Shown one piece after another: positions 50,009 to 64,000 of a DNA stretch of 64,000 nt. How positions within the stretch are numbered: the first letter of the stretch is position 1; each line of letters opens with the position of its first letter. Made by a program: the position numbers and the translations under genes. This DNA comes from a virus, in IMG/VR virus record IMGVR_UViG_3300018080_000131, positions 1 through 64,000 of that record, one strand, 5' to 3'. Under the pieces are notes generated by a model. It did not search any database and was not told the DNA's origin. It saw only the letters and a program-made list of their open reading frames with translations.

Positions 50009-51565
50009 ATGGAAAATTTAATAGAGAAAAAACCAAGAAATATCATACAAGCTTTTGAAGAAGAGGAGTTTTTTGGTAAGTCTTTTCCAGGTAAGAAGAA
50101 AGGAAGCTGGGATAAGTGGAAAAGCTTCTTGAAAATTGTATATGGTATCAGATTAAACAAAAGGGACAGGGAAGTTTATGAGAGATGTACTGGTAGAAGC
50201 ATTGATGATATTCCTAAAGGTGGTTTTGAAGAGTTTTATGGGATTGTAGGTAGAAGAGGTGGTAAAAGTACTATTTCTTCATTTATTGCTTCTTATGAGG
50301 CTTTATTTGGTGGTTGGGAAAAAGTATAAGCTCCTGGTGAAACAGGAAGTGTGTTTATTGTTGCTCCTGATAAAAAGCAAGCTGGAATTATTTTCAAATA
50401 TTGTAAAGCTATGATTGCTGATAATTTTAAAGATATGATTGTGAGAGATACTACAGAATTGATTAGCTTGAAAAATGGAATTGATATTGTGATAATGCCA
50501 GCTAGAATGACAGGTTTGAGAGGTTTTTCAACTATTTGTGTTATTCTTGATGAAATTGCTTTTTTGAAAACAGAGGATTATGCTAATCCAGCAGATGAGA
50601 TTATTACAGCATTAGAACCTTCTTTGAAGGCAAAAGCTAAGTTGATTGGGATTTCTACTCCTTATGGAAAATTTGGTTATTTCTATGATATGTTTAAAGA
50701 GCATTATGGAAAAAGAGGTTCTGAAATTTTAGTTTGGCAAGCTCCAACAACATATATGAATCCAAGGTATGATGTAAGTAAAATCAGAAGAGCTAAAAGA
50801 AGGGATTTGTCAAAGGCTACAGCAGAATATGAGGCTACATTTAGAGAAGATGTAAGTTCTTACATTTCAGAAGATGAGCTTTTGGGGTTAACAGAATTTG
50901 GTATAAAAGAAAGGTTACCAGAAGAGGATATGCCTTATTATGCTTTTGTTGATGTTTCTGGTGCTAGGAAAGATTCTTTTACTTTTGCAATTGCTCATGT
51001 TGAAGAGGATTTTGTAGTTTTAGATGTTATTTATGAAAAAGTTCCACCATATAATATTGAAAATCAGCAACAGATTTGTGCTGATTATTTGAAGAAATTT
51101 GGAATTAGGCATATTGTTGGTGATAAATATGGTGGTGATTTTCCAGTTCAAGGATTTAAGAGGAAGGAGATTCAGTATTATCAAAGCCAAAATCCTAAGT
51201 CTGATTTATATCTTGATTTTCAGATAGTTTGTAATTTGAAAAAAGTGAAATTGCTTGATAATGAAAGAATGAGAAAGCAGTTTATTATTTTAGAAAGGAA
51301 AACAGATGCTTCAGGAAAAGATTCTGTAATTAAGCCAAGAAATACTCATGATGATGTTGCTAATTCAGTTGCAGGAGCAGTAGTAATGGCATATAGGAGT
51401 ATTTCAACTAGACCTTCTGAGGAAGAGCTAAAAAGCAGGATGTTTAGGAAAGTGCATAAAAGAGGGTTGAATTATGATGAGGAATGGGCTAATATTTTGA
51501 AAGAAGCTGAAAAAGAAATGGAAGAGCAGTTAGCTAGAAGAAAAAAAGGAGAAGGAGAAAAATGA
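50009..51565 (+). CDS. terL: terminase large subunit, interrupted by a single in-frame TAA at 50327-50329
   Basis: GRRGGKS Walker A in the first segment; VAPDKKQA, RG, VILDEIAF, ISTPYG, EYEATF, FVDVSG, HDDVAN in the second. Both segments share one frame. Confidence 0.88.
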
Positions 51566-51789
51566 AAGGTTTGATATATTACATAAACAAGATTTTAGGT
51601 AGAGTTCCAACAGAAACAGATAAGAGTTTTGCTAAAAAAGAGCTTGAGTATTTTATGAGAGGTAGAGGTGCTACTCATAGGTTTGTAAGACCAGGAGAAA
51701 GATTCAGAAAGCCTTGGAAAAAAAAGAAAAAGCTTAAAGTTGGTGAATCTGAGAGAATTGGAAGATTTTACAAATATGAGGAGAAATAA
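51562..51789 (+). CDS. basic hypothetical protein
   Basis: SD GGAG; coupled to terL. Confidence 0.55.
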   Translation: MKGLIYYINKILGRVPTETDKSFAKKELEYFMRGRGATHRFVRPGERFRKPWKKKKKLKVGESERIGRFYKYEEK

Positions 51790-52059
51790 GAATATGGATA
51801 ATATTGGAAAAGAAATTATTTATTTTGAAGAATGGGTAGATAAGAGAATAAGACATATTGAAAGAAAGGAAAAGAGGAAACTTTTTATTAAATATTTAAA
51901 ATATTATCTTACTAAAATGGAAGAGGCTATGGAAAAAGATGATAAGGTTAAGGTTCTTTCATTACAAAGAAAGTTTAAAGAAGAAGATGTTGGTTTTTAT
52001 TATGTTTTTAAAATGGCAAGTTATTTTGCAAATAAACTATTTGATGAGGAGTAATTTAT

Positions 52060-52148
52060 AGGCTGAAATATGAGTAAAATATACCTGTATAAGGCTATTA
52101 GAGCTATTCTAAGCCAAAAACTTTATAATACAAGTATGTTTGCATTAA
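52060..52148 (+). repeat. dispersed repeat, copy D
   Basis: See copies A and C. Confidence 0.85.
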
Positions 52149-52193
52149 TGGAGTTTTAATAAGGCTTAAAAATGATTTGGAGGTGATTAAATA

Positions 52194-52322
52194 ATGGCTA
52201 AAAGAGGTGTTCCTAAAAGAGATGGTTCTGGAAGAGGAACTAGAGCAAATAGAGGAAGAGGTGGATGTTCTTCAACTAAAGTTAGAGGACAGGGAAGAAG
52301 TGGAAACAGAGGAAGGAGATAA
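52194..52322 (+). CDS. 42-aa Arg/Gly-rich peptide (not in ORF track)
   Basis: Strong SD GGAGGTGA; MAKRGVPKRDGSGRGTRANRGRGGC... Confidence 0.75.
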   Translation: MAKRGVPKRDGSGRGTRANRGRGGCSSTKVRGQGRSGNRGRR

Positions 52323-52323
52323 A

Positions 52324-52482
52324 ATGAATATTTTTGAGCTTAAATGTTATTACTGTGGAAACATTAATAAAATAAAGTATCTGGGTAATGAAGAACCAAA
52401 GAAAGTAAAGTTTCAGTGTAGAGAATGTAAGAGAGATATAAAGTATGAGGATGAGGTTGCTAGAAATTTTAGGTTTTACTAA
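52324..52482 (+). CDS. small Zn-ribbon protein
   Basis: SD GGAG; CYYC...CREC. Confidence 0.6.
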   Translation: MNIFELKCYYCGNINKIKYLGNEEPKKVKFQCRECKRDIKYEDEVARNFRFY

Positions 52483-52592
52483 TGCTAGTTGAATATTTAG
52501 AAGCTTTGGGTTTTATTGCTTTAATTTGGGTTCTTCTTTTTATTTGGGAAAGATTAGGAAGGAAGAAGAAGCTGAAATTGTAGTTTTTTGTC

Positions 52593-53063
52593 ATGAAACA
52601 TAGAACCAGAATTGAAAGAAAAAACAGAAAAAGCAAGAGATATATGACCTTGCATAAAAGTGGTTGGTTGTCTCAAAAGGACTTATCACAATTTTTGAAT
52701 ATCAGCATATGGACAATAAGAAGATGGAGTGGGTTAAGATATTGGAATACTTGGGATATTCCAGAAGGTTTTCCCAAACCAGTTGCAAAAGATGGAGAAT
52801 GGAGATGGAATCTGAAAGAGGTTTTGGTTTTTTGTGGATTTAAAAAAGAAGAGGATGAAATGAGCTATCATGAATTAACAGAGATTGAAAAATTGCTTAA
52901 AACAAATGAGGTTGCTGAAATGCTAAGATGTACTCATTATTGGGTTAGAAAATTGGCAATAAAAGGTGATTTGGATTATGTTAAGCTTGGTAACCAGTAC
53001 AGATTTAGGTATAAAGATGTACTAGATTTATTGAATAAAAAAAGGAAAAATTGTAGGATATAG
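52593..53063 (+). CDS. tandem MerR/excisionase-like HTH protein
   Basis: LSQKDLSQFLNISIWTIRRW...GFPKP...RW and LLKTNEVAEMLRC...VRKL...G.L..VKLGNQYRF. Confidence 0.8.
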   Translation: MKHRTRIERKNRKSKRYMTLHKSGWLSQKDLSQFLNISIWTIRRWSGLRYWNTWDIPEGFPKPVAKDGEWRWNLKEVLVFCGFKKEEDEMSYHELTEIEKLLKTNEVAEMLRCTHYWVRKLAIKGDLDYVKLGNQYRFRYKDVLDLLNKKRKNCRI

Positions 53064-53074
53064 GTGGTGAGAAA

Positions 53075-53191
53075 ATGAGCAAACATGCAGAATATTCTTT
53101 TACCAGAAAAGCTGTTTTGAAAAGGGATAAGAGGAATAAGAAAAGGAAGAAAAGAGGTAAGGGAAGTAAGCATGTAAGGAAAAGCAAGTAA
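53075..53191 (+). CDS. 38-aa highly basic peptide (not in ORF track)
   Basis: SD AGGTGG; MSKHAEYSFTRKAVLKRDKRNKKRKKRGKG... Confidence 0.5.
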   Translation: MSKHAEYSFTRKAVLKRDKRNKKRKKRGKGSKHVRKSK

Positions 53192-53531
53192 AATGAACCA
53201 GTATATGAAAGAAGAGGAGCTTATAGAAGAGGCTTTGAAAAAATTGCATTTGTTAACTGGTGAAAAATGTCAGGAAAGGAAAGAAAAACAGGTTTTGAAA
53301 AAGTTGGTTGAAATAATAAAGAAAAAACAGATTAATCAATTGAAGAAAGATTTAAAAGGGGTAATAGACTATTTTACAGATAGGAGAGTAATATGAGTAT
53401 TATGATATTAAACAATATTTTGTATAGGTATAGAGATTTTATTAAACACAATAACTTATCATATATGAAAAGCAGGTATAATTTTTCTGATGATTTTGAT
53501 GAGTGGTGTAATAGAACAGAATAAAAATTAG

Positions 53532-53797
53532 GGGTATGGGTATAAAAGAGAAGATAAGGAAAATGAGGTTGGCTATAATACCAGATATGCCTAATATAAT
53601 AACAGTAGATGATATAATGTTGTATATACCTAATGGTTGTATAGAATCTGATATATGGGATTATGTGGATTGGGAAAGAGAGATAAAAGAAAATAGGGAG
53701 TAGGGTTGAAAAGAGAAGTAATGAAAATGCAGAGGATAGTATAGAAAGGAAACATACCTAAAATAGAGATATTTTTATAGGGTATGGGTATAAAAGA
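53532..53797 (+). repeat. 18-bp direct repeat in purine-rich non-coding tract
   Basis: GGGTATGGGTATAAAAGA at 53532 and 53780. Confidence 0.75.
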
Positions 53798-54204
53798 ATG
53801 GTATATAGGAAAGAAAAAGGTAGTAGAAGGAAAGTAGATACATTGTATATACTTCATGAGGTGTCAAAAACTGCTCAATTTTTTGCAAGACAAAACCAAA
53901 ACCAAGGCAAAGAAAAAAGAAGGCTTACTCCAGGGGTAGACCTCAGTTGCAAAGTTGTTGGCACAGGAGAGTATGTTTTAGGTTATGAGGCTTTTTGAAG
54001 GGTATTATACCACAAATGAGGGGTGTATGTCAAGTAGGATGGTGCTGAAACAGGCTTGGGCTTCCAGAACAGCAGGGGTTTCTGATGAGCATGGTAGAAT
54101 CTGTAAAAAACCAGCATATACCACAATATATAGGGGTATTGATGCTGTATATACTAGTCAAAAAAGTTAAGTTGCAGAAAATAAAAGAGATATGGGTAGA
54201 AAAA

Positions 54205-54232
54205 AGTTTACATAATAAAAGTTATAAGACAC
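54205..54232 (-). other. dif: dif-like XerC/XerD recombination site
   Basis: Minus strand GTGTCTTATAA-CTTTTA-TTATGTAAACT has the 11-6-11 layout; the right arm equals the Bacillus subtilis dif XerD (RipX) arm TTATGTAAACT. Confidence 0.8.
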
Positions 54233-54435
54233 AGGTGGGGTATATGATGCAGGATTCTGGTAGTGAAAGTAAAGTTCAGGTGCAGTTGCAGGAACATTTT
54301 GGTATCAAAAGCCAGCAGAAGTTCTCAGGAGTTGGGGATTTTTTTCTTGGAATATGCAGAAGACAACAAGTACACCAGTTATACAGTAACAGGGGTAGGA
54401 TTCCTTGGAATTGAGAAAAAGGATTGTTTACAGTG

Positions 54436-54457
54436 AAATGTGGTACTATATAGATGA
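54436..54457 (+). promoter_or_regulatory. second promoter class, copy 3
   Basis: AAATGTGGTACTATATAGATGA. Confidence 0.75.
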
Positions 54458-54469
54458 AAGGAGAGAATA

Positions 54470-54646
54470 ATGAGTATTGTTTATGACCCTACAATAGAAG
54501 CCAAAGTGGTGCTTTGTCCTAAGTGTGAGGCTAATATGGAAGACTTGGAGTTTGAGATTGCTGGAGATGGTCTTTGGGAGTGGAAGTGTAATAAGTGTGG
54601 ATATAGTTGGACAATGACAGAAGAGGAGATGAAGGAGTTGAGATGA
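54470..54646 (+). CDS. small Zn-ribbon protein (not in ORF track)
   Basis: SD GGAG; CPKC...WKCNKCGYSW. Confidence 0.65.
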   Translation: MSIVYDPTIEAKVVLCPKCEANMEDLEFEIAGDGLWEWKCNKCGYSWTMTEEEMKELR

Positions 54647-55047
54647 AAGAAAAGGTTTACTGTTGCAATTGTAAGTATTTTTATGGGTTTACTTCTCCAA
54701 ATAGCCAAAAGACTTGTTTGGCTAAGTGTTTTACCAGAAGTACTCCAATAGTTCCAAAAGAAATCTTTAATCAGGATGGTGAGTTGCTGGGGACAAGAAA
54801 TCCAGAAGAGGTTAATAGAAATAATGATTGCCCAGATTATAAAAGGAAATGGTGGAAGGTTTGGGTATGAAAGAAAAAGAGATTATACTACAATTAATGG
54901 AGGCTTGTAATACTTTAATGGATGAGGTTGTAGGAAAGAAAGCTACTAGATGGGGTGTTGTCAATAAGGCTCTTGTTGATGGAAGTAAGTATATAAAGGA
55001 AATAGAAAAAAAAGAGATGATACAAAAAATAAAAAAATTGGGGTATA

Positions 55048-55323
55048 TTGATGATTAGAAAACAGAAGAAAGCTTATAAGAAGCTAAAGAAACACTACAA
55101 AAAACATATTGAAAGCTGGGAAAAATGGTTAACACATATAGAGGAATACAGAATACCTTATTTTCAGGAAGAGCAGAGAAAGTATCATATACTGTTAAAG
55201 AATAAGAAAGAGATATTGGATTATTTAAGTGAGTATTATGGTTATTTAGCTGAATTGGAATACAAAAGAAAACAGATGGAAAAAGAAGAGGAAAGAAGAA
55301 TCTCTTTTATAGGATTAAGATGA
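55048..55323 (+). CDS. hypothetical protein
   Basis: Coupled ORF in a small-gene cluster. Confidence 0.5.
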   Translation: MMIRKQKKAYKKLKKHYKKHIESWEKWLTHIEEYRIPYFQEEQRKYHILLKNKKEILDYLSEYYGYLAELEYKRKQMEKEEERRISFIGLR

Positions 55324-55483
55324 AAGAATATTTTAATTGTCTTAAATGTGGTTCTTTGTGTGAGGTTGTTTTCAAGGATAATGATGAGTATTCTGGAGAA
55401 GAGGTTTGTGAGAAATGTGGTGCTTCTCATGAGGTGTATTTAGTAACAGAATTGAAAGTATCTTTAAATGAAGAATAGATAAT

Positions 55484-55518
55484 TGTCAGAAATGAGGCTT
55501 CTCACTTCTGACAAAAAA
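55484..55518. terminator. intergenic hairpin, probable terminator
   Basis: TGTCAGAAATGAG-GCTT-CTCACTTCTGACA followed by an A-run. Confidence 0.6.
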
Positions 55519-55567
55519 GGTGATAAGTTATGGAAAAAATTGAGAAAATGAAAAAAACTTTGCTGTA

Positions 55568-55653
55568 TAAAATGCTTGTTTATAACAAGTTAAAAGAAAA
55601 AAGAAAAAAATTTCAAAAAAAGACTTGACAAATGATAAAAAATGTTTTATATT
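55568..55653 (+). promoter_or_regulatory. early-type promoter driving the ncRNA operon
   Basis: TAA-N19-TTA 55568-55592; TTGACA 55625; TATATT 55648. Confidence 0.88.
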
Positions 55654-55658
55654 GTGAT

Positions 55659-55695
55659 TGTCTTCAGTTAGAAGATGTAAGTTCTTTAACAATTT
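55659..55695 (+). promoter_or_regulatory. rrn-type antitermination leader (boxB-like hairpin + boxA)
   Basis: Hairpin TGTCTTC-AGTTA-GAAGATG then GTTCTTTAACAATTT; compare E. coli rrn boxA TGCTCTTTAACA. Confidence 0.7.
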
Positions 55696-55700
55696 AATTG

Positions 55701-55957
55701 ATTGTCTCTTCTGAGAGAAGGGAGTTAATCCACAGTTCATCTTGAGCTTGGGAAAAGTTCCTAGAGGATGGAAGATTCAACTAATCTGAGGATAGGTGTT
55801 GAAAACCTAGATGATTCACCTAGTTAGGAGTAGCTAACCTAATGATGATGGTGGTTGGGGTGTCCCCCCTGACAGTTGACCCTAGTTCTCCAAGGGTGTT
55901 CTTGTTACCAAGTGAGCTTAGTTGCAAGAGCTTGGTACTTCTCCCAGAAGAGACAAT
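55701..55957 (+). ncRNA. structured ncRNA module 1
   Basis: 20-bp closing helix (55701-55720 with 55938-55957, one mismatch); several internal hairpins; higher GC than flanks. Confidence 0.75.
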
Positions 55958-55963
55958 AAAATG

Positions 55964-56175
55964 TTTTCCTTCTAATGGGAAGGTCAACTAGACAGAAGAC
56001 TTACTCATTAGTGAAACAGGGAATTGATTAATGCTTTTAAGTAGGCATGGTCAGCATCTGAGTAGAACCATCTGTGGTAAGCAGAAAGACAAAAGGCTCT
56101 GTTGGCTGTCAGTTCTTTGTGAAGTATTAATGCTTCTTGCAGGTGGAATTCCTGCTCTTCCCATTAGAAGGAAAA
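55964..56175 (+). ncRNA. structured ncRNA module 2 (tRNA-like, expanded anticodon arm)
   Basis: Perfect 19-bp closing helix; T arm GCAGG-TGGAATT-CCTGC; variable-arm hairpin GAAGTA-TTAA-TGCTTC. Confidence 0.78.
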
Positions 56176-56191
56176 ATAAAAAATTCTCCTT

Positions 56192-56401
56192 AGAGTTTTT
56201 TCTGGGAGAATAGCTTAAGAAAGCTGTAATGCATTTAATAGGATGCTGGTGAGATGAGATGGTTATACTAGTTGCCATTTTATCTTCTCAATTCCAGCAC
56301 TATGACTATAGCATAGTTAGCATAATAACAGTTTAAAGCTCTGGTTCTTTGAATCAGGTAAATGTTGGTTATGAAATCCAACTTCTCCCAGAAAAAACTT
56401 T
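56192..56401 (+). ncRNA. structured ncRNA module 3 (tRNA-like, ~110 nt D-loop insertion)
   Basis: 19-bp closing helix; GGGAGAA-TA-GCTT...AAGC-T-CTGGT-TCTTTGA-ATCAG...GTTGG-TTATGAAAT-CCAAC-TTCTCCC. Confidence 0.78.
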
Positions 56402-56407
56402 GGTGAG

Positions 56408-56502
56408 TAAAGTATTGTATAACAATAACTTAGAAAAAAACTTTAAAAAAAAAATGAAAAAAAAGACTTGACAAACACATAAAAATGTTTTATATTATAA
56501 GT
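56408..56502 (+). promoter_or_regulatory. early promoter cassette
   Basis: TAA-N19-TTA 56408-56432; TTGACA 56468; TATATT 56491. Confidence 0.9.
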
Positions 56503-56686
56503 ATGATGATAAACAAAGAAACAAGCAAAACAAAACAAAGCCTTCTTGATGAGCTTTCTATCATTAGAGAAGATATTAAAGATGTTCAGTTTTCTATCCA
56601 GAATGGCAACATTTCTGATGTTTCTATTCTTAAAGGTCTTCAGGAAGTTGAAACATCTCTCTTAAATCAAATAAAGGAGTTTTAAG

Positions 56687-57172
56687 ATGACAATTAAGTT
56701 TCATAGGCACTCAGGTTTTTATGGTGATGGCAATTCCAGGTATTTCTGGGAAGACAGAGAGTTGGATTTGTCAAAAGGTGTCATGAAGATTCATACTGTG
56801 GTTTCCAAGTATGGTCAGTTGGCTAGTAATGGTAACTTTCAGGAAGATACTGAGGATGAGGAAATTCAGGCTATTCCTTTTAATAAGGAAACAGAAGAGC
56901 AGATTTATGAGATTCTTCTTCCTCTTATTGAAACAAAAGAGAAGTATCCTCATCTTGTTAACTTCAGATTCTTTTCCTACAAACACAAATTGTTTGTTAC
57001 TGGTAGGATGAATAAAGCTGTTAAGATTGCTGTTAAGAGTGGTAGTCATTATTATGGTACAGATTGCAGTAAAAACATCTTTGTGCTTCAGAGAAAAGGG
57101 TTGGTTGTTACTACTTATTATGAAGATACCTTCAAACATTCCTTCTGGAAAATCAAAGTGGAGAAAATATAA
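56687..57172 (+). CDS. hypothetical early protein
   Basis: SD GGAG. Confidence 0.65.
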   Translation: MTIKFHRHSGFYGDGNSRYFWEDRELDLSKGVMKIHTVVSKYGQLASNGNFQEDTEDEEIQAIPFNKETEEQIYEILLPLIETKEKYPHLVNFRFFSYKHKLFVTGRMNKAVKIAVKSGSHYYGTDCSKNIFVLQRKGLVVTTYYEDTFKHSFWKIKVEKI

Positions 57173-57174
57173 GT

Positions 57175-57245
57175 TGAAAAAAACTTTAAAAAAAATGAAA
57201 AAAAGACTTGACAAATGACTAAAAAAGTGTTATATTATAAGTAGA
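57175..57245 (+). promoter_or_regulatory. early promoter
   Basis: A-tracts; TTGACA 57208; TATATT 57231. Confidence 0.88.
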
Positions 57246-58085
57246 ATGAGAAACAAAAAAGGAGAAACAAGGATGAAACAAACAATTTATTACTTTGGTG
57301 AGAAACTTAGCTTCATGATTGAGACAGATTCTTCAGATGAGGCTCAGGCTCTTTTAGACTCTGAAAGAGCTAAAGGAAGAGCTTGTTGCTGTCTTCATGA
57401 AAATGGGAAACATCAGATTTATTCCCAGATTCCAGAAGAAGCAGTTAGGTTTCAGGTAGCCAACATTGACACTGAGGAAATTTATTTTGTCAGTGGTTGG
57501 GAAGAAGGTAGAGATAGTACTGACAAGTCAGCAATTCAGGAAGCAATCAAACTCAATGATACAATCACAATGGGTAAGGTGATTGTAACTCCAATTAGGT
57601 TTACTGATATTCTTGATGAACTGAATAAAGAGGCTCAGAAGGATGATTTACCTCTTGATGCTTCTAGGGAAGGCTCAGTGATGCATGGTATCCTAAAAGA
57701 CTCTCAGAAGGCTTCTAATGAGCTTAAAGAGGTATTTGGTGATGTTATTAGTAAGTATACTGATGATGAGGCTGTAGATGATGGGCTTTTAGTTCCAGTT
57801 GAAGACCTTTTGCCAATTACTTATATGACAGCAGGTGTTTATGCAAAGTGTATTGAACCTTTTGTTTTAAAGGATGTTATTACTGGTAGGACAATTAAGG
57901 GTACTTCTCCAAAAGCTTTGACAAAGAAGCTTATCACAAGAATCATTTCTGCTGTGAGTCTTCAGATAAGTGATGGTTCTGCTCCTTCTGATGATTGGAT
58001 GTATAAAGTTGATGCTTCAGGTTGGGAATTCTTTGTGGTTGAAAACCAGACAGGTTTTACAGTGATGTTTCCAGAGGAGTATTAA
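57246..58085 (+). CDS. hypothetical early protein (SD-led start 57273)
   Basis: C-terminal VISKYT..EAVDDGLLV...TVMFPEEY motif familiar from phage/plasmid proteins. Confidence 0.7.
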   Translation: MRNKKGETRMKQTIYYFGEKLSFMIETDSSDEAQALLDSERAKGRACCCLHENGKHQIYSQIPEEAVRFQVANIDTEEIYFVSGWEEGRDSTDKSAIQEAIKLNDTITMGKVIVTPIRFTDILDELNKEAQKDDLPLDASREGSVMHGILKDSQKASNELKEVFGDVISKYTDDEAVDDGLLVPVEDLLPITYMTAGVYAKCIEPFVLKDVITGRTIKGTSPKALTKKLITRIISAVSLQISDGSAPSDDWMYKVDASGWEFFVVENQTGFTVMFPEEY

Positions 58086-58086
58086 G

Positions 58087-58518
58087 ATGACCTATAAAAA
58101 AGCACTTGGTTTGCTTATAGGAATTGCTAAGGATAATGGTATTAAGGTTTGTTTTCATGAGAGTGAATCTGAAATAAGAGGTTATTGTATACCATCTGAG
58201 AAAAAAATAGTTCTTAATAAAAAGGCTATTTTAGACAAGCATGGAGAAAGGATGTTTTACTCAAATGTTACAGCAGTTTTGGCACATGAAATTGGTCATA
58301 TTATGCTTCAGCATATTAGGCTTTGTGTAGATAGTTTTGATGAGATTATTGAGCAGGAAAAAGAGGCTTGGATGTATGCTAGTTTTCTTTTTAGTAGATT
58401 GGGTATAAGAATAACTAAAACATTTATAAATAGTATGGAAGAAGGTATTGAGAGTTATAGAATTGCTTATATGCAGAATATGGCTAAAGCATATAATAAA
58501 TCAAAAGGAGAAAAGTGA
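58087..58518 (+). CDS. ImmA/IrrE-like metallopeptidase
   Basis: IRGYC...IVLN...VLAHEIGHIML...EKEAW.YA. Confidence 0.75.
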   Translation: MTYKKALGLLIGIAKDNGIKVCFHESESEIRGYCIPSEKKIVLNKKAILDKHGERMFYSNVTAVLAHEIGHIMLQHIRLCVDSFDEIIEQEKEAWMYASFLFSRLGIRITKTFINSMEEGIESYRIAYMQNMAKAYNKSKGEK

Positions 58519-58732
58519 AATGAAAAAAACTACAATTTCTGATTTATTTAACAAGAAGGTTGAGTATGGTGGTGAGATTAGGACTTATGGAAGTGTCAGG
58601 AAGGAGCTTGAAGAAAAGGAGTTTCCATCACAATTGATTGACTATTATATGATGGGTTTACTTACTATGATGGAGAGGAAGGATTCTTCAAAGTAAAAGT
58701 GTATAACAAAAAAATTTGAATGAGGTGTTTTT

Positions 58733-58933
58733 ATGGGTAAGAGATATGTTAAGCATATGGAATGGAAGAGTAAGAGTTGGTTGGAGAAAGAGTATATAGA
58801 GAAACAAAAGAGTGTTAGAGAAATTGCTAAGGAATGTGGGGTTGCTGTTAGGACAATTGCTTATTGGCTAGAAAAGTTTGATATAAAAACAAGAGATATT
58901 TCTAAGAGTCTAGAGGTTAAATATAGGAGATAA
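58733..58933 (+). CDS. small HTH protein
   Basis: WLEKEY...KSVREIAKECGVAVRTIAYWL..FDIKTR. Confidence 0.75.
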   Translation: MGKRYVKHMEWKSKSWLEKEYIEKQKSVREIAKECGVAVRTIAYWLEKFDIKTRDISKSLEVKYRR

Positions 58934-59133
58934 TATTGTTATTTAAAAACAAGATGAAACAAAAATTAGGTAAAGATGATTATGGATTTGTGATTAATGG
59001 AGAAACTGGAAATTTGGAAATGTCTCTTCCTAAGAAGGAAGAGTATACAATAAAAGAATTAAGCATTGTTTTAGCTGGTCTTGAAAAATTTAAAAAAGCT
59101 TTCAAGATATTAGTGGAAAATGGAGAGTAAATA

Positions 59134-59346
59134 ATGACAAAAAGAATATCAAGTAATATAACAAAATCAAGTAAAAAGAAACAGTGGACTTGTAAAAAAT
59201 GTGGTAAAAAAGGTATTGTAGGTGAGTATACACAATCCTTAATCTGTGGTGATTGTGGAAATGTGATTAGTGAATTTAAACAGGTTGAGATTATTACAGA
59301 ACCTTGGATTGGGAAACAAGAAGAGATTATGGAAAGTGATAAATAA
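59134..59346 (+). CDS. small Zn-ribbon protein
   Basis: CKKC...LICGDCGNVI. Confidence 0.55.
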   Translation: MTKRISSNITKSSKKKQWTCKKCGKKGIVGEYTQSLICGDCGNVISEFKQVEIITEPWIGKQEEIMESDK

Positions 59347-59372
59347 AATTACATTTTTTGAAGGAGATTGAA

Positions 59373-59996
59373 ATGCTAAGTAATTTTAAATTTACAGAAC
59401 CTTTGGTATTTGATAATATTTATAATATTCCTGTTATAGAGAAGCAGGAGTTTAAGTTTGATGTTAATAAGGTTATGGGTTTTAATTATTGTCTAAGTAA
59501 GAAGGAATTGATTGAGAATACAATTCATTTTTTCTTAGATGATTATCAGTTTGAGAGGGTTTGGAATAAACCTGAAAGATATTTGAAGATTCTGAAGGAG
59601 TTTAATGGTTGTTTTTCTCCAGATTTTTCAATATTTAGAGATGCTCCTTATCCAATTCAGCTATTTAATGTTTTTAGAAACAGAATAGTTGGGTTATATT
59701 GGCAAAGGAATGGTATTAATGTTATTCCTACAGTTGGTTGGGGTGATGTTGATACTTGGGATTTTTGCTTTGAAGGAGTAGAGGAAGGTTCTTGGGTTGC
59801 TATTTCAACAAGAGGAGCAATTCATAGAAATGAAGATAAAGAGTTGTTTAAAGAGGGTTATAATCAGATGTTAGAGGTTATTAAACCTGAGAAGATTATT
59901 GTCTATGGTAGGAAGTTGGAAGGTCTTGATGGAAACATTGAGTGGATTCCTTGGGACTATTATAGAACAGAAAAATTAAATAGTGAGGAGAATTAA
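59373..59996 (+). CDS. DUF4417-family protein
   Basis: IHFFLDDYQFERVWN.P...SPDFS...NVFRNR...WQRNGINVIPTVGW...F.EGY...I.P..I.VYG. Confidence 0.85.
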   Translation: MLSNFKFTEPLVFDNIYNIPVIEKQEFKFDVNKVMGFNYCLSKKELIENTIHFFLDDYQFERVWNKPERYLKILKEFNGCFSPDFSIFRDAPYPIQLFNVFRNRIVGLYWQRNGINVIPTVGWGDVDTWDFCFEGVEEGSWVAISTRGAIHRNEDKELFKEGYNQMLEVIKPEKIIVYGRKLEGLDGNIEWIPWDYYRTEKLNSEEN

Positions 59997-59997
59997 T

Positions 59998-60264
59998 ATG
60001 GGAGGAAGAGGTTCAGGTTCAGGTGGTGGAGCAGGTGGTGGTGGAGGTGGTGCATCTCCAGAAACACCAGCACAAGCTCAGGCTATGATTGATTCAATTG
60101 ATAGTAGAATGGATGGTTTGAGAACTAGGATTAGGTATCATATTGAGAGAGGTGCTACTTCTCAAGCTACTGCTTTACAGAGAAGATTAAGAAGGCTACA
60201 ACAAAGAAAAAAAGCTTTACAAGCTTTAATGAAGAGGCTTCAAAAAGCTGGTGTTCCAACATAA
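59998..60264 (+). CDS. MGGRG-initiated small protein
   Basis: SD GAGGAG; MGGRGSGSGGG N-terminus of the type often following DUF4417 genes; basic coiled coil. Confidence 0.7.
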   Translation: MGGRGSGSGGGAGGGGGGASPETPAQAQAMIDSIDSRMDGLRTRIRYHIERGATSQATALQRRLRRLQQRKKALQALMKRLQKAGVPT

Positions 60265-60279
60265 TAATTAGGAGATATA

Positions 60280-61830
60280 ATGGATTTTAAAGGATTTTTC
60301 TATAGGGTTTGGTATGATTGGTTGAATCTAAGAAAGAATGTATTCTGTCCTTTGGCAAAAAAGAATAATTGGAAATGGTTATTTAATGTTTGTGATTGTC
60401 AGAGATATGAACCTAAATATATTTGGGTATGGGTATGTTCTGATTGTGGTAAGTTGACAGAAGAAGGAAAACCAAAAGCTATTTATAAAAAATTCCTTAA
60501 AGGAACAGAACCTACAGAGAAGTGTACTTGTGCAATTATACCACCAATAGAAAAAGTAGAAAGAACCATTTGTCTTGTTAGTGGATTGCTTGCTAGAGGT
60601 TTCTGTTTACATACAGAAGTGAGAGAATACAACAAAGGAACAGAACCTACAGAGAAGTGTGATGTTCATGATTTTGTAAAATCTAAAAGAGATGAAGAAA
60701 AATGTGCAGGTATGCTAGGTTTCTTTTTAAGCTTTATTAGACAAGCTTGGAATCCTAAAGACCAGATGAAAACTGTTGAGGAACACCAAGCTGTTTTTTC
60801 TGAGTTAGCAAGAAGAGGATATAAGTATGTTGATTGGTTTATGTGGTTATGTGATAATAAATATGAACATAAATATTTAAATGATAAGACTCCTTTTTAT
60901 CAATATAAAAATGCTGTTGGGAAAAGGATGTTTGATTTAATGAAATGGGATGAAAGATTTTGGGAATTGTTTGAGATATTTATTAAACTACATAAACAGT
61001 TTAATCTTGTCCCTGTTCCTCAGATTCTTATGGCTAGATATTGTGATTATCCTTTTGAGAATAATAGAAATAAAGTTAGAGGTTTTTGGGATAAAACAGC
61101 TAGAGATGTTCAGTATGATTTGATTGATAAAACTGTTAGCATTGTTAAAGGAATTGTTGGAAAAGATTTTCTTGTGAAGTTTGTAAATGAACCTCAGCAT
61201 GGTGGAAGTGATAGTAGGTTTCATACAATTGCTGAATGGCATCATGATATGTTTTGGCATGGTCTTTGCAAACATTTTGATACTGGAGAAGAGGCTTTGA
61301 GTCATTTGGTCATTGATAATTCTGGTTCTGAAGCTGGTCAATTGTTGTTGGTTTGGCATCATGGTGGTGAAGATGGTCAAAGGTGTCCTAAATGTGGTAA
61401 GCTTTTTAAAGATATATTTGGCTACAGTACTGAAGAATGGATGGGTAGGCTTAGAATTGGAGAACAGCACACTGTTAGTATTGTGGATGATTTGGAAGCT
61501 GGTCATAATTCTTTAAGAAAGTTTTTTGGTTCTGCTAATAGAAAGGTGAGATGGCATGAAGATGGTGGTGCAAGTGATTGTTCTAAAGCTCATGGTTACC
61601 ATAATGGATATTGTTTTGCTAATGCTGAAGAGTATGGTAAAATGTGTGCTAAGGTATGGAAGATGCAAGCTGAAAGAGGAAGAGGAAAGATATGTTATAT
61701 TTGTATATTTCCTGCTGAAACATTATTTTATATTGATAAGGTTTTCCTAGAAACTTACAGAGTAGATACTATTAATTGGGACAGATTTGATGAAATGGTG
61801 AAAATGCATAAAAAATATCTTGGAGATTGA
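60280..61830 (+). CDS. protein with two GTEPTEKC Zn-binding-like repeats and a glycoside-hydrolase-like (TIM barrel) domain
   Basis: 27-nt exact repeat at 60499 and 60634; ICLVSGLLA..C...GTEPTEKCDVH; FVNEP as in clan GH-A acid/base motifs. Confidence 0.5.
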   Translation: MDFKGFFYRVWYDWLNLRKNVFCPLAKKNNWKWLFNVCDCQRYEPKYIWVWVCSDCGKLTEEGKPKAIYKKFLKGTEPTEKCTCAIIPPIEKVERTICLVSGLLARGFCLHTEVREYNKGTEPTEKCDVHDFVKSKRDEEKCAGMLGFFLSFIRQAWNPKDQMKTVEEHQAVFSELARRGYKYVDWFMWLCDNKYEHKYLNDKTPFYQYKNAVGKRMFDLMKWDERFWELFEIFIKLHKQFNLVPVPQILMARYCDYPFENNRNKVRGFWDKTARDVQYDLIDKTVSIVKGIVGKDFLVKFVNEPQHGGSDSRFHTIAEWHHDMFWHGLCKHFDTGEEALSHLVIDNSGSEAGQLLLVWHHGGEDGQRCPKCGKLFKDIFGYSTEEWMGRLRIGEQHTVSIVDDLEAGHNSLRKFFGSANRKVRWHEDGGASDCSKAHGYHNGYCFANAEEYGKMCAKVWKMQAERGRGKICYICIFPAETLFYIDKVFLETYRVDTINWDRFDEMVKMHKKYLGD

Positions 61831-61846
61831 AAAAAATTTTGATGTG

Positions 61847-61942
61847 TAAAGTATTGTATAATAATAACTTAGAAAAAAATTTAAAAAAAATGTTAAAAAA
61901 ACACTTGACAAACAAGAAAAAATGTTGTATATTATAAGTACA
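61847..61942 (+). promoter_or_regulatory. early promoter cassette
   Basis: TAA-N19-TTA 61847-61871; TTGACA 61905; TATATT 61928. Confidence 0.9.
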
Positions 61943-62272
61943 ATGAGAAACAAAGGAGAAACAAAGATGACAGAAACAAAAGAAAGACCAGAGGTTAAAG
62001 CTGGTGATTTTGTCAATCCTGATGGTTGGGGAAAGTGGAATGGTGAAATACTTCAGGAAGATGATGGTTTCAAAGATTCTTCTTTTCCTGGTTGCCAGTT
62101 CAGGCTTCCTTCTAATACCTGTCCTGATTGTAAGTTTGCTGTTAATGTCAGAATAACAGGTAAGGAAAGATGGGATAAAGGTTCTGGTTGGTTCAGGTGT
62201 GAAGTTGAGTTTGTTGGTGATGGAGAACCTTCAACATTCACCAGAGGCTGGCTTCATAAGAATGTTTGGTAA
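61943..62272 (+). CDS. hypothetical early protein (SD-led start 61967)
   Basis: Follows promoter. Confidence 0.65.
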   Translation: MRNKGETKMTETKERPEVKAGDFVNPDGWGKWNGEILQEDDGFKDSSFPGCQFRLPSNTCPDCKFAVNVRITGKERWDKGSGWFRCEVEFVGDGEPSTFTRGWLHKNVW

Positions 62273-62453
62273 AAAGGAGAGATAAAATGGCATTAGGAAG
62301 TAAGAAAAGAGATTATGTAACTTCAGCAAGATTGGTTGAAAAAAGGCTTGCTCTTCATTTTCAGTTTATGAATGAATATATTCAAAATGGAATGGAAAAA
62401 GATGAAGCAAGTAAGAAAGCTTTTAAGGATATTCAAGAAGGAAGGATAAAGTA

Positions 62454-62870
62454 ATGGTTGGTTACATTAGTTGGAAATATAATAATGCATGTTTACCAGA
62501 AGAAGGCTATATTGAAGTTGTGATTATGACAAAGAAAGAGAAGATTAGTAACTTCTATAAAATTAAAAGATTTGAAGGTGATGATTTGAGAGATGGTAAT
62601 ATTGCTGTATTCTACAATAGATTAATTACTGGTTCTTTTTGGAGAAGTGGTCAAACTATTTTTTATACTGATAATGTTCCTTGTAGAACTAATGTTGAAG
62701 AGTTAAAGAGTTATAAGGTTTGTGAGAATTGTATTCATCTTACACAAGGTTTCCACCAGATAAAGGGTAGAAAAACTTATACTTTTGAGTGTGGTAGTTT
62801 TGAAAGTAAGAAGAAAGGAAAGAAGGTTAGTTTATCAGATACCTGTGAAAAGTTTTTTTCAAAAAAATGA
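62454..62870 (+). CDS. hypothetical protein with C-terminal Cys motif
   Basis: CENCIH...C...CEKF. Confidence 0.55.
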   Translation: MVGYISWKYNNACLPEEGYIEVVIMTKKEKISNFYKIKRFEGDDLRDGNIAVFYNRLITGSFWRSGQTIFYTDNVPCRTNVEELKSYKVCENCIHLTQGFHQIKGRKTYTFECGSFESKKKGKKVSLSDTCEKFFSKK

Positions 62871-62917
62871 AAAAAAGACTTGACAAATAAAATAAAATGT
62901 GTTATATTATAAGTAGA
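62860..62917 (+). promoter_or_regulatory. early promoter
   Basis: TTGACA 62880; TATATT 62903. Confidence 0.88.
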
Positions 62918-63325
62918 ATGAGAAATAAAGGAGTAAAAAAGATGAGTAGAGAAGAAAGTAATAGGCTTGAGAGGCTTATGAGTGGTTTGGAAGAAGTTAC
63001 TGGTCATAGGGCTTCTATGAGTCAGAAGGAGCTTTGGAATCTTGCTCCTAAAGAGGCTAAAAGAACTGTTAGGAAAATGAGAAGACTTGAAAAAAAAGCT
63101 AAAAGGCTTCCTAGTAGGAGTTCTCATCCTGAGCTTCAGAGTGTTACTGTTCCTAGATTGGCTGATGGTCTTATGAGATTGGTTGGTAATACTCTTAGGG
63201 TTGGAAATAAAGTTCTTGTTGGTGGAGAACCTGCTAGACAGCTTCATAAACATGGTGCTATGATGGAAAGTGATTATCAGAATTATAAAGCTAAAGATTC
63301 TAAAAATAAATCAAGGCATTTGTAA
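62918..63325 (+). CDS. basic hypothetical early protein (SD-led start 62942)
   Basis: Follows promoter. Confidence 0.65.
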   Translation: MRNKGVKKMSREESNRLERLMSGLEEVTGHRASMSQKELWNLAPKEAKRTVRKMRRLEKKAKRLPSRSSHPELQSVTVPRLADGLMRLVGNTLRVGNKVLVGGEPARQLHKHGAMMESDYQNYKAKDSKNKSRHL

Positions 63326-63343
63326 AAATGTGAGGTGATATGA

Positions 63344-63562
63344 ATGAGTAAATATAATGTTAGGGTTTTAAGTTTTCTATATGATATTAATAAGCTTGAT
63401 TCAGATATTGCTGGGTATCCTCATTATTTTACTGTAGAAGCAAAATCCAAAAAAGAAGCAGAAGAGAAAATGAGAAAGAAAATGGTTAAAAGATATGGAG
63501 AAAACTATTTTAAAATAACTGATGTTGAATTATATGATAAAGATTTTGCTTCTTATGATTAA
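63344..63562 (+). CDS. hypothetical phage protein
   Basis: SD GAGGTG; VEAKSKKEAEEK motif. Confidence 0.6.
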   Translation: MSKYNVRVLSFLYDINKLDSDIAGYPHYFTVEAKSKKEAEEKMRKKMVKRYGENYFKITDVELYDKDFASYD

Positions 63563-63573
63563 AGGAGAATAAA

Positions 63574-64000
63574 ATGAGTGAGCTTCTAGAAAAATTCAAG
63601 AGTCTTTTAAAGAAAAGAGAAGGAATTGTACATGAAAGAAGCAAGCTTTATAAGTTGAAGTTTGATATGAGAGATGCAGATTATCAAGAGAGATATGATA
63701 AAACTAAGTTCCAGCTAAGAAAGTTTGATGATAGAGAGAGAAAGATTAACAAGCTTCTTGATGGTCTTGCTAAAGAGCTTCCTGTTCAGGTTAGTAAGAA
63801 TTGGAAGAAGTATGATTCAGTTTGGGAGTCAACATATTCTTCTCAAGGGTTTGGTTCTTATAAGTATGCTAAGGAAAGAGCAGAAAAAATAGCTGATGAT
63901 ATTAAAGTGAATGGTGTTCCAGTGAAGATAGAGATTGAAACAAAGAAGTTTGAAGGTTCTGGTTCTATATTTAGTAGTAGAAATTCTCATTCAACATTTA
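63574..64000 (+). CDS. hypothetical protein, runs off the window
   Basis: SD GGAG, ATG 63574, frame open to the window end. Confidence 0.6.
   Translation, partial: MSELLEKFKSLLKKREGIVHERSKLYKLKFDMRDADYQERYDKTKFQLRKFDDRERKINKLLDGLAKELPVQVSKNWKKYDSVWESTYSSQGFGSYKYAKERAEKIADDIKVNGVPVKIEIETKKFEGSGSIFSSRNSHSTF

Follow-up and report, generated by a model that had tools for sequence, protein, structure and literature searches.

The window analysed here, by which we mean the whole 64,000-nt stretch of DNA numbered from its first letter, is the first 64 kb of a 101,074-bp IMG/VR virus record (IMGVR_UViG_3300018080_000131) whose completeness is estimated at 65%. The phage genome has a G+C content of 31.5%, and nearly all of its genes lie on the + strand and have strong Shine-Dalgarno sites. 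The phage encodes a full replication set, with helicases, SbcCD, and a ribonucleotide reductase in addition to a family A DNA polymerase. The phage appears to represent an uncultured lineage because two of its proteins are so distant from those of known phages: its DNA polymerase is less than 30% identical to those of Bacillus SPO1-like phages, and its terminase shares no more than 24% identity, across most of its length, with that of any GenBank phage. The terminase of the nearest relative reached, L132, is 48% identical across a 404-aa query. The gene for the large terminase subunit (window 50009-51565) is a single frame interrupted by one in-frame TAA at 50327-50329, which sits just past the Walker A motif (GRRGGKS); TAA is otherwise the most frequent stop codon in this phage genome. 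The N-terminal 106 aa of the terminase are 50% identical to the start of a 530-aa relative.

The terminase gene of L132 adjoins the portal-region genes. In the present phage, about 15 kb of small genes (51.6-66.9 kb; window 51600-64000 onward) lie between the two and are missing from L132 at this place, so the block looks like an accessory or early host-takeover island that L132 is without. Four of the genome's six strong consensus promoters fall within it, together with the RNA operon described below. No RNA-related clue came from the neighbouring proteins, namely an HTH protein, a DUF4417 nuclease, a zinc ribbon, and two more tentative assignments, one to an M48/M78-like metallopeptidase and one to a glycoside-hydrolase-like protein; the neighbouring 279-aa protein found no relative besides itself. 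A 14-bp hairpin at window 55483-55514, 3' of the upstream zinc-ribbon gene, has no U-tract on the + strand, and the terminator scan flags only a minus-strand look-alike there.

The genome is densely packed and has no other gap of the kind found within this island, where a promoter is followed by a small hairpin, a boxA, and three RNA modules. The whole unit spans 55621-56407, and the next promoter lies shortly beyond it:

55621..55653, + strand: consensus sigma70/sigmaA-type promoter (-35 TTGACA at 55625-55630, 17-nt spacer, -10 TATATT at 55648-55653)
55660..55676, + strand: small leader hairpin in the boxB position (6-bp stem, 5-nt loop), directly after the inferred transcription start
55681..55697, + strand: boxA GTTCTTTAACA (55681-55691) with an AATTTA spacer, found by pattern match
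55701..55957, + strand: module 1, 257 nt; closing helix 55701-55720 / 55938-55957, 20 bp with one A.C
55964..56175, + strand: module 2, 212 nt; closing helix 55964-55982 / 56157-56175, 19 bp, perfect
56186..56407, + strand: module 3; perfect 17-bp core 56194-56210 / 56383-56399, 19 bp in the fold
56464..56496, + strand: next copy of the family promoter, driving genes of 66 aa and 161 aa

The tract is non-coding. Codon scoring of its two longest ORFs (49 and 60 aa) gave -0.07 and -0.02, as against 0.33 +/- 0.11 (minimum 0.09) for 59 real small genes of the phage, and its G+C content is 0.38-0.45 vs. ~0.31 in the flanks. The initial annotation, made from the letters alone, had likewise described a stretch of raised G+C with no credible ORF downstream of a consensus promoter, and all three parts of that description hold.

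The promoter, which has an A-rich tract upstream, is one of six near-identical copies in the genome with the family pattern AGACTTGACAAA..TTATATT. Five of the six are followed by ATAAGTA, a ribosome-binding (Shine-Dalgarno) site, and then a gene; the copy at 55621 is the only one with no ORF behind it, and in their place has the hairpin and AGTTCTTTAACAATTTAA. A repeat search detected a direct repeat between the 55621 promoter and the next promoter; that is, the promoter region is duplicated. The hairpin at 55660-55676 had been called a boxB. Its predicted energy is -5.3 kcal/mol with a z-score of -0.12, which taken alone is not significant; its position, on the other hand, agrees with that of the hairpin in 80 of 100 comparable phage leaders.

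The same annotation had also claimed a boxA. The published boxA consensus is GYTCTTTAANA, with a critical C at position 4 (bioRxiv 10.1101/091223), and GTTCTTTAACA fits it exactly, the position-4 C included. Nothing else in the 64-kb window matches the boxA pattern, and this boxA lies 27 nt past the -10 element. About 0.75 such matches are expected by chance per whole window, and it is therefore very unlikely that a boxA within 50 nt of the sole ORF-less promoter is a chance occurrence. The E. coli rrn boxA-spacer oligonucleotide is ugcucuuuaacaauuua (PMC2724277); the boxA and spacer found here differ from it at only two bases, both just 5' of the core. A boxA with C at position 4, placed shortly after the transcription start, is the arrangement of an rrn-type antitermination leader.

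Two further sequence repeats touch the leader. An exact 17-nt direct repeat links window 55670-55686, in the RNA leader, with 50845-50861, inside the terminase gene (E 0.004 within the genome). In addition, GTTCTTTG occurs at 56112-56119 and 56344-56351, ~50-65 nt before the 3' ends of modules 2 and 3, and GTTCTTG occupies the equivalent place in module 1 (55898-55904). These copies echo the core of the leader boxA and are base-paired in the predicted folds; for GTTCTTTR, the 800-nt tract has three matches, counting the leader copy, vs. ~0.05 expected.

The three modules lie side by side, separated by short A-rich spacers, and each is closed by near-perfect terminal inverted repeats, just as the initial annotation had it. 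The helix lengths of 19-20 bp that it gave were also right, and in module 3 the helix reaches 25 bp (56186-56210 / 56383-56407) when G.U pairs and one mismatch are allowed. The whole 101-kb genome was scanned for exact inverted repeats 80-450 nt apart, for which the chance background is 11-12 nt. The three closing helices, with 13, 19, and 17 nt of exact repeat, are the only ones above that background genome-wide. The relatedness of the module ends, a further claim of the annotation, is real: the helix cores share 5' TTCT..GGGAG/AAG and 3' CTTC(T)CCCA..GAA. The outer parts of the helices vary by module (ATTGTCTC, TTTTCC, and GAGTTTT) and yet each is complementary to its partner, and thus pairing has been maintained through changes on both sides. 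In the predicted fold, the closing helices have pairing probabilities of 0.96-0.98. Each product would have about two turns of uninterrupted duplex built from its own 5' and 3' flanks, as expected of an RNase III stalk.

Folding was in favor of the + strand, which gave better scores than the - strand, with z-scores of -3.8, -6.2, and -7.5 for modules 1, 2, and 3, respectively. The whole 767-nt transcript is predicted to fold as three independent modules (z -8.8), with boxA unpaired in the centroid. The predicted interior of module 1 (217 nt) is multi-branched; that of module 2 (174 nt) has a small hairpin, a long central arm, and a hairpin with a 5-bp stem and a 7-nt loop beside the 3' arm; and that of module 3 comprises 172 nt between the perfect arms, or 174 nt in the 19-bp fold. 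Stripped of their closing helices, however, the interiors score only -0.04, -2.1, and -3.0 vs. shuffled sequence, and length-matched coding controls reach -3.0; module 1 is no more stable inside than its shuffles, and modules 2 and 3 are modestly above theirs. Most of the predicted stability thus comes from the closing helices. The interiors could not be aligned with one another, and RNAalifold, run on a sequence alignment of modules 2 and 3, found no common fold for the two. Because the interiors are both close to shuffled sequence and unalignable, the models make a weaker case for three ornate folds than for three sealed modules.

The annotation had offered no name for the RNAs, and known classes do not supply one. 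Rfam 15 gave no match at the gathering score anywhere in the window (tRNA, tmRNA, YrlA/Y RNA, 6S, RNase P, GOLLD, ROOL, pRNA, skipping-rope, and others), and relaxing the threshold to E<=10 over 55400-56600 yielded just two chance snoRNA matches, both outside the modules. Several further candidates were considered and set aside. No Ro/TROVE gene (PF05731) that would accompany a Y RNA or YrlA, and no reverse transcriptase (PF00078) that would accompany a retron msr-msd, was found in the 101 kb of this record, which is 65% complete. A MITE does not fit, as the tract is single-copy in the genome, no other such repeat occurs there, and the interiors are unrelated. Nor does an antisense regulator, since antisense matches to the phage mRNAs do not exceed chance.

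No homologue of the modules was found in any collection searched. Neither blastn against 50,697 phage records nor exact-pattern scans of IMG/VR (for the 3' arm, the promoter family, and the two-arm core) detected one, and the 3'-arm matches were due to chance. The promoter pattern, when scanned over metagenome contigs, proved too loose, giving 120 chance matches and none that was related. Five matches to the two-arm core in species-representative genome contigs are about the chance expectation. Of these two-arm-core matches, the one at L220 corresponds to a C-terminal peptide that two convergent genes share, and that at L224 is an unrelated 26-bp repeat. The tract was absent by blastn, nhmmer, and a helix scan from 80 loci of relatives found via the terminase; the weak matches seen in G002 and in G003 fall within genes and on the other strand.

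What does recur in other phages is the layout. In a scan of IMG/VR for GTTCTTTRAMAA within 15-45 nt downstream of a consensus promoter, at least 119 loci (L227-L345) had this arrangement of promoter and boxA. Among the matches listed, a small hairpin separates the -10 element from boxA in 80 of the 100 non-redundant leaders, and the median spacer is 28 nt, compared with the 27 nt, including a 6-bp hairpin, found here. The typical cargo is tRNA: among the matches listed, 55 of the 83 non-redundant units with enough downstream sequence have tRNA genes downstream, and 46 of the 83 have at least three. Long-range helices of at least 16 bp are six-fold enriched downstream of these leaders (0.51 per kb, vs. 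0.086 per kb upstream, again among the matches listed), and modules with closing helices of 16-26 bp abound in the stretches between tRNAs. Arm sequences repeat within a lineage (for example, CCATATTGAAGCACATT / AGTGTGTTTCAATATGG), whereas interiors differ, and the abundance of G.U pairs in the arms identifies these as RNA helices. When Rfam was run on 14 such loci, only tRNAs and one tmRNA received names, and the modules remained nameless. In neither arms nor interiors do the modules of other phages show sequence likeness to the present three.

Some individual loci deserve mention. L240 (2156-2680) and L305 (minus strand) are low-GC leader variants with the boxA GTTCTTTGAAAA and a 200-nt module that a 16-bp helix closes; next come another hairpin, of 21 bp, and then the first gene, an ORF at ~520 nt. 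There is no tRNA in the stretch examined of either. A C-to-T difference between L240 and L305 changes a G-C pair of the closing helix to G.U. In L306 (2229-2700), on a 273-kb phage contig, the boxA leader precedes a 318-nt G+C-rich module with a 21-bp helix and then a tRNA-Met; the module has no Rfam match.

These units can be defined operationally by a consensus promoter, a hairpin and boxA within 15-45 nt of it, and non-coding cargo closed by helices of at least 16 bp. Every one of these features is present at our locus, which by this analogy we class as an orphan case, without tRNAs, of a type of phage stable-RNA operon that recurs but has hardly been described; our literature search found no paper on boxA-led phage tRNA or ncRNA operons.

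We consider it reasonably probable that the locus is a phage stable-RNA operon that borrows the host's route for making rRNA, an early, Nus-protected transcript giving rise to three RNAs that act in trans. The layout of the operon is well supported by its sequence; its processing and function we infer. Host RNA polymerase would initiate at the strong consensus promoter, as read from the sequence. Within the first 40 nt of the transcript, the hairpin and boxA would recruit NusB/NusE and other Nus factors, a step suggested by the exact match and the position of boxA. If the host has NusB/E and Rho, as we assume, the Nus factors would keep the untranslated RNA from being cut by Rho. The three modules are predicted to fold successively, each 3' arm pairing with its 5' arm into a duplex of ~19-25 bp, in keeping with the compensatory differences among the copies. 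Such duplexes are long enough for an RNase III, which the host is assumed to have, and cleavage could release three RNAs of ~170-240 nt; the helical stubs left over might then shield them from exonucleases. More speculatively, the RNAs would build up during early infection and function in trans, their most likely role being to bind a protein of the host or the phage as a decoy or scaffold. The helix core that the modules conserve (UUCU..GGGAGAAG / CUUCUCCC..AGAA) may be a common processing or recognition signal, and the unalignable interiors may be three different cargoes. The resemblance of three helix-closed modules with a boxA leader to the phage units that head tRNAs supports the idea of free-standing stable RNAs.

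Other explanations carry, in descending order of weight, a cis-acting leader, tRNA mimicry, invertible DNA, and a lack of function. The first, which we judge unlikely, is that the 750 nt are a structured 5' untranslated region acting in cis on the early genes from 56485, the helices serving as sites for mRNA processing or stabilization and boxA aiding passage of the polymerase. The terminator scan found no intrinsic terminator between module 3 and the 56464 promoter, so that nothing of this kind separates the module from the next gene, and the low-GC variants L240 and L305 do have boxA, a helix-closed 200-nt module, and an ORF at ~520 nt. The downstream genes nevertheless own a full consensus promoter, which begins 57 nt past the end of the extended helix of module 3. 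Moreover, fold prediction makes the three modules self-contained closed domains, and the cargo in most of the analogous phage units is free-standing stable RNA, namely tRNAs.

The initial annotation had suggested tRNA mimics, and we find it improbable that the modules are oversized mimics or decoys for tRNA enzymes or anticodon nucleases. The data do not support this suggestion: ARAGORN at default settings found no tRNA or tmRNA in the tract, the Rfam tRNA, tmRNA, and tRNA-like families were empty even at E<=10, and the modules have neither a GTTC T-loop nor a GG D-loop and also lack CCA or a discriminator. When ARAGORN was forced to 60-80% stringency with introns allowed, it returned sub-threshold cloverleaves, but those for modules 1 and 2 have misplaced ends and miss the closing helices. 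At 80% stringency with introns, it does place a cloverleaf inside module 3, although its limits fit that module only. A predicted four-way junction in module 2, with its 5-bp, 7-nt-loop hairpin beside the 3' arm, is in the same direction, as is the presence of tRNAs in related phage operons. An "acceptor" stem in these modules, however, would be 19-20 bp long with no unpaired junction nucleotides.

Slightly less probable again is that the 17-20 bp repeats are recombinase sites bounding three invertible DNA segments of 170-220 bp. Known invertible switches are of similar size and have perfect Watson-Crick repeats with a common core, a likeness that is shared by the present segments, and perfect Watson-Crick cores by themselves do not discriminate between an RNA helix and a DNA inverted repeat. 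Nonetheless, neither a serine nor a tyrosine recombinase (PF00239, PF00589) is encoded in the 101 kb of this incomplete record, the segments contain no promoter or terminator, and the boxA leader and raised G+C favor RNA. The helix of module 3, furthermore, extends only via G.U pairs, and the analogous helices of other phages are rich in them. Least probable of all is that the tract is functionless, whether a decaying duplicated hairpin-bearing intergenic cassette or small-protein coding sequence: the duplication of the promoter region, the lack of excess stability inside module 1, and the existence of ORFs of 49 and 60 aa speak for it, but three helices have stayed perfect despite differing in sequence, the codon scores of those ORFs are far under those of real genes, and so dense a genome has no other such gap.

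Returning to the stable-RNA operon as the preferred reading, the closest model is the bacterial ribosomal RNA operon. In rrn operons, boxB-boxA directs a Nus antitermination complex, and the leader-trailer helices are cut by RNase III. The rrn leader likewise has a strong promoter, a hairpin, and a consensus boxA ahead of untranslated cargo, with each product enclosed in a helix formed by its 5' and 3' flanks. Here, in contrast, the cargo is three 210-260 nt RNAs that are unlike rRNA, no tRNA or rRNA is present, and the helices are shorter and perfect. The boxA-headed tRNA arrays of other phages match the present leader in layout and spacing, and their modules, closed by 16-26 bp, have conserved lineage arms, variable interiors, and no Rfam family. 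They occur mostly in phages of higher G+C content, and their arms have many G.U pairs, whereas the present operon is tRNA-free and its arm sequences and interiors are unrelated to theirs.

Likeness to individual phage or bacterial RNAs is more limited. Stable RNAs of unassigned function are also found in the phage T4 tRNA cluster, but those have tRNA-like ends processed by RNase P, and the present modules do not. In Y RNA/YrlA, 6S RNA, and phi29 pRNA, a long 5'/3' terminal helix closes a structured domain, as it does here, and those RNAs bind protein in trans; in this case, there is no Rfam match to any of them and no Ro/TROVE gene. 6S RNA has a central bubble, unlike the multi-branched interiors predicted here, and the phage is not phi29-like. 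GOLLD and ROOL are large phage-encoded structured RNAs, with no assigned role, that are found near tRNA islands (PMC12286853). They differ from the present modules in being single RNAs of 500-800 nt with conserved folds backed by covariation, and their Rfam models have no match here.

A broader view, which we put forward only tentatively, is that promoter, hairpin, and boxA form a widespread phage cassette that hijacks the host machinery for rRNA transcription and processing to make nameless structured cargo RNAs in bulk and in any number, with a helix characteristic of the lineage sealing each one. The present copy might then supply tRNA-free RNAs for early host takeover or anti-defence, perhaps as protein decoys or as parts of an RNA-protein or RNA-only assembly.

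If the stable-RNA reading is true, phages would copy not just single RNA genes but the control logic of host rRNA operons, and would use it for the early bulk expression of ncRNA. The three RNAs would bring new families to the small set of phage structured RNAs without an assigned role, which includes GOLLD, ROOL, and the T4 stable RNAs. The pattern that defines the class (at least 119 IMG/VR loci, mostly tRNA arrays with nameless helix-closed modules) would provide a sequence handle for finding more of them. The class would also allow a test of whether phage RNA production depends in general on the host's Nus-factor antitermination and RNase III.
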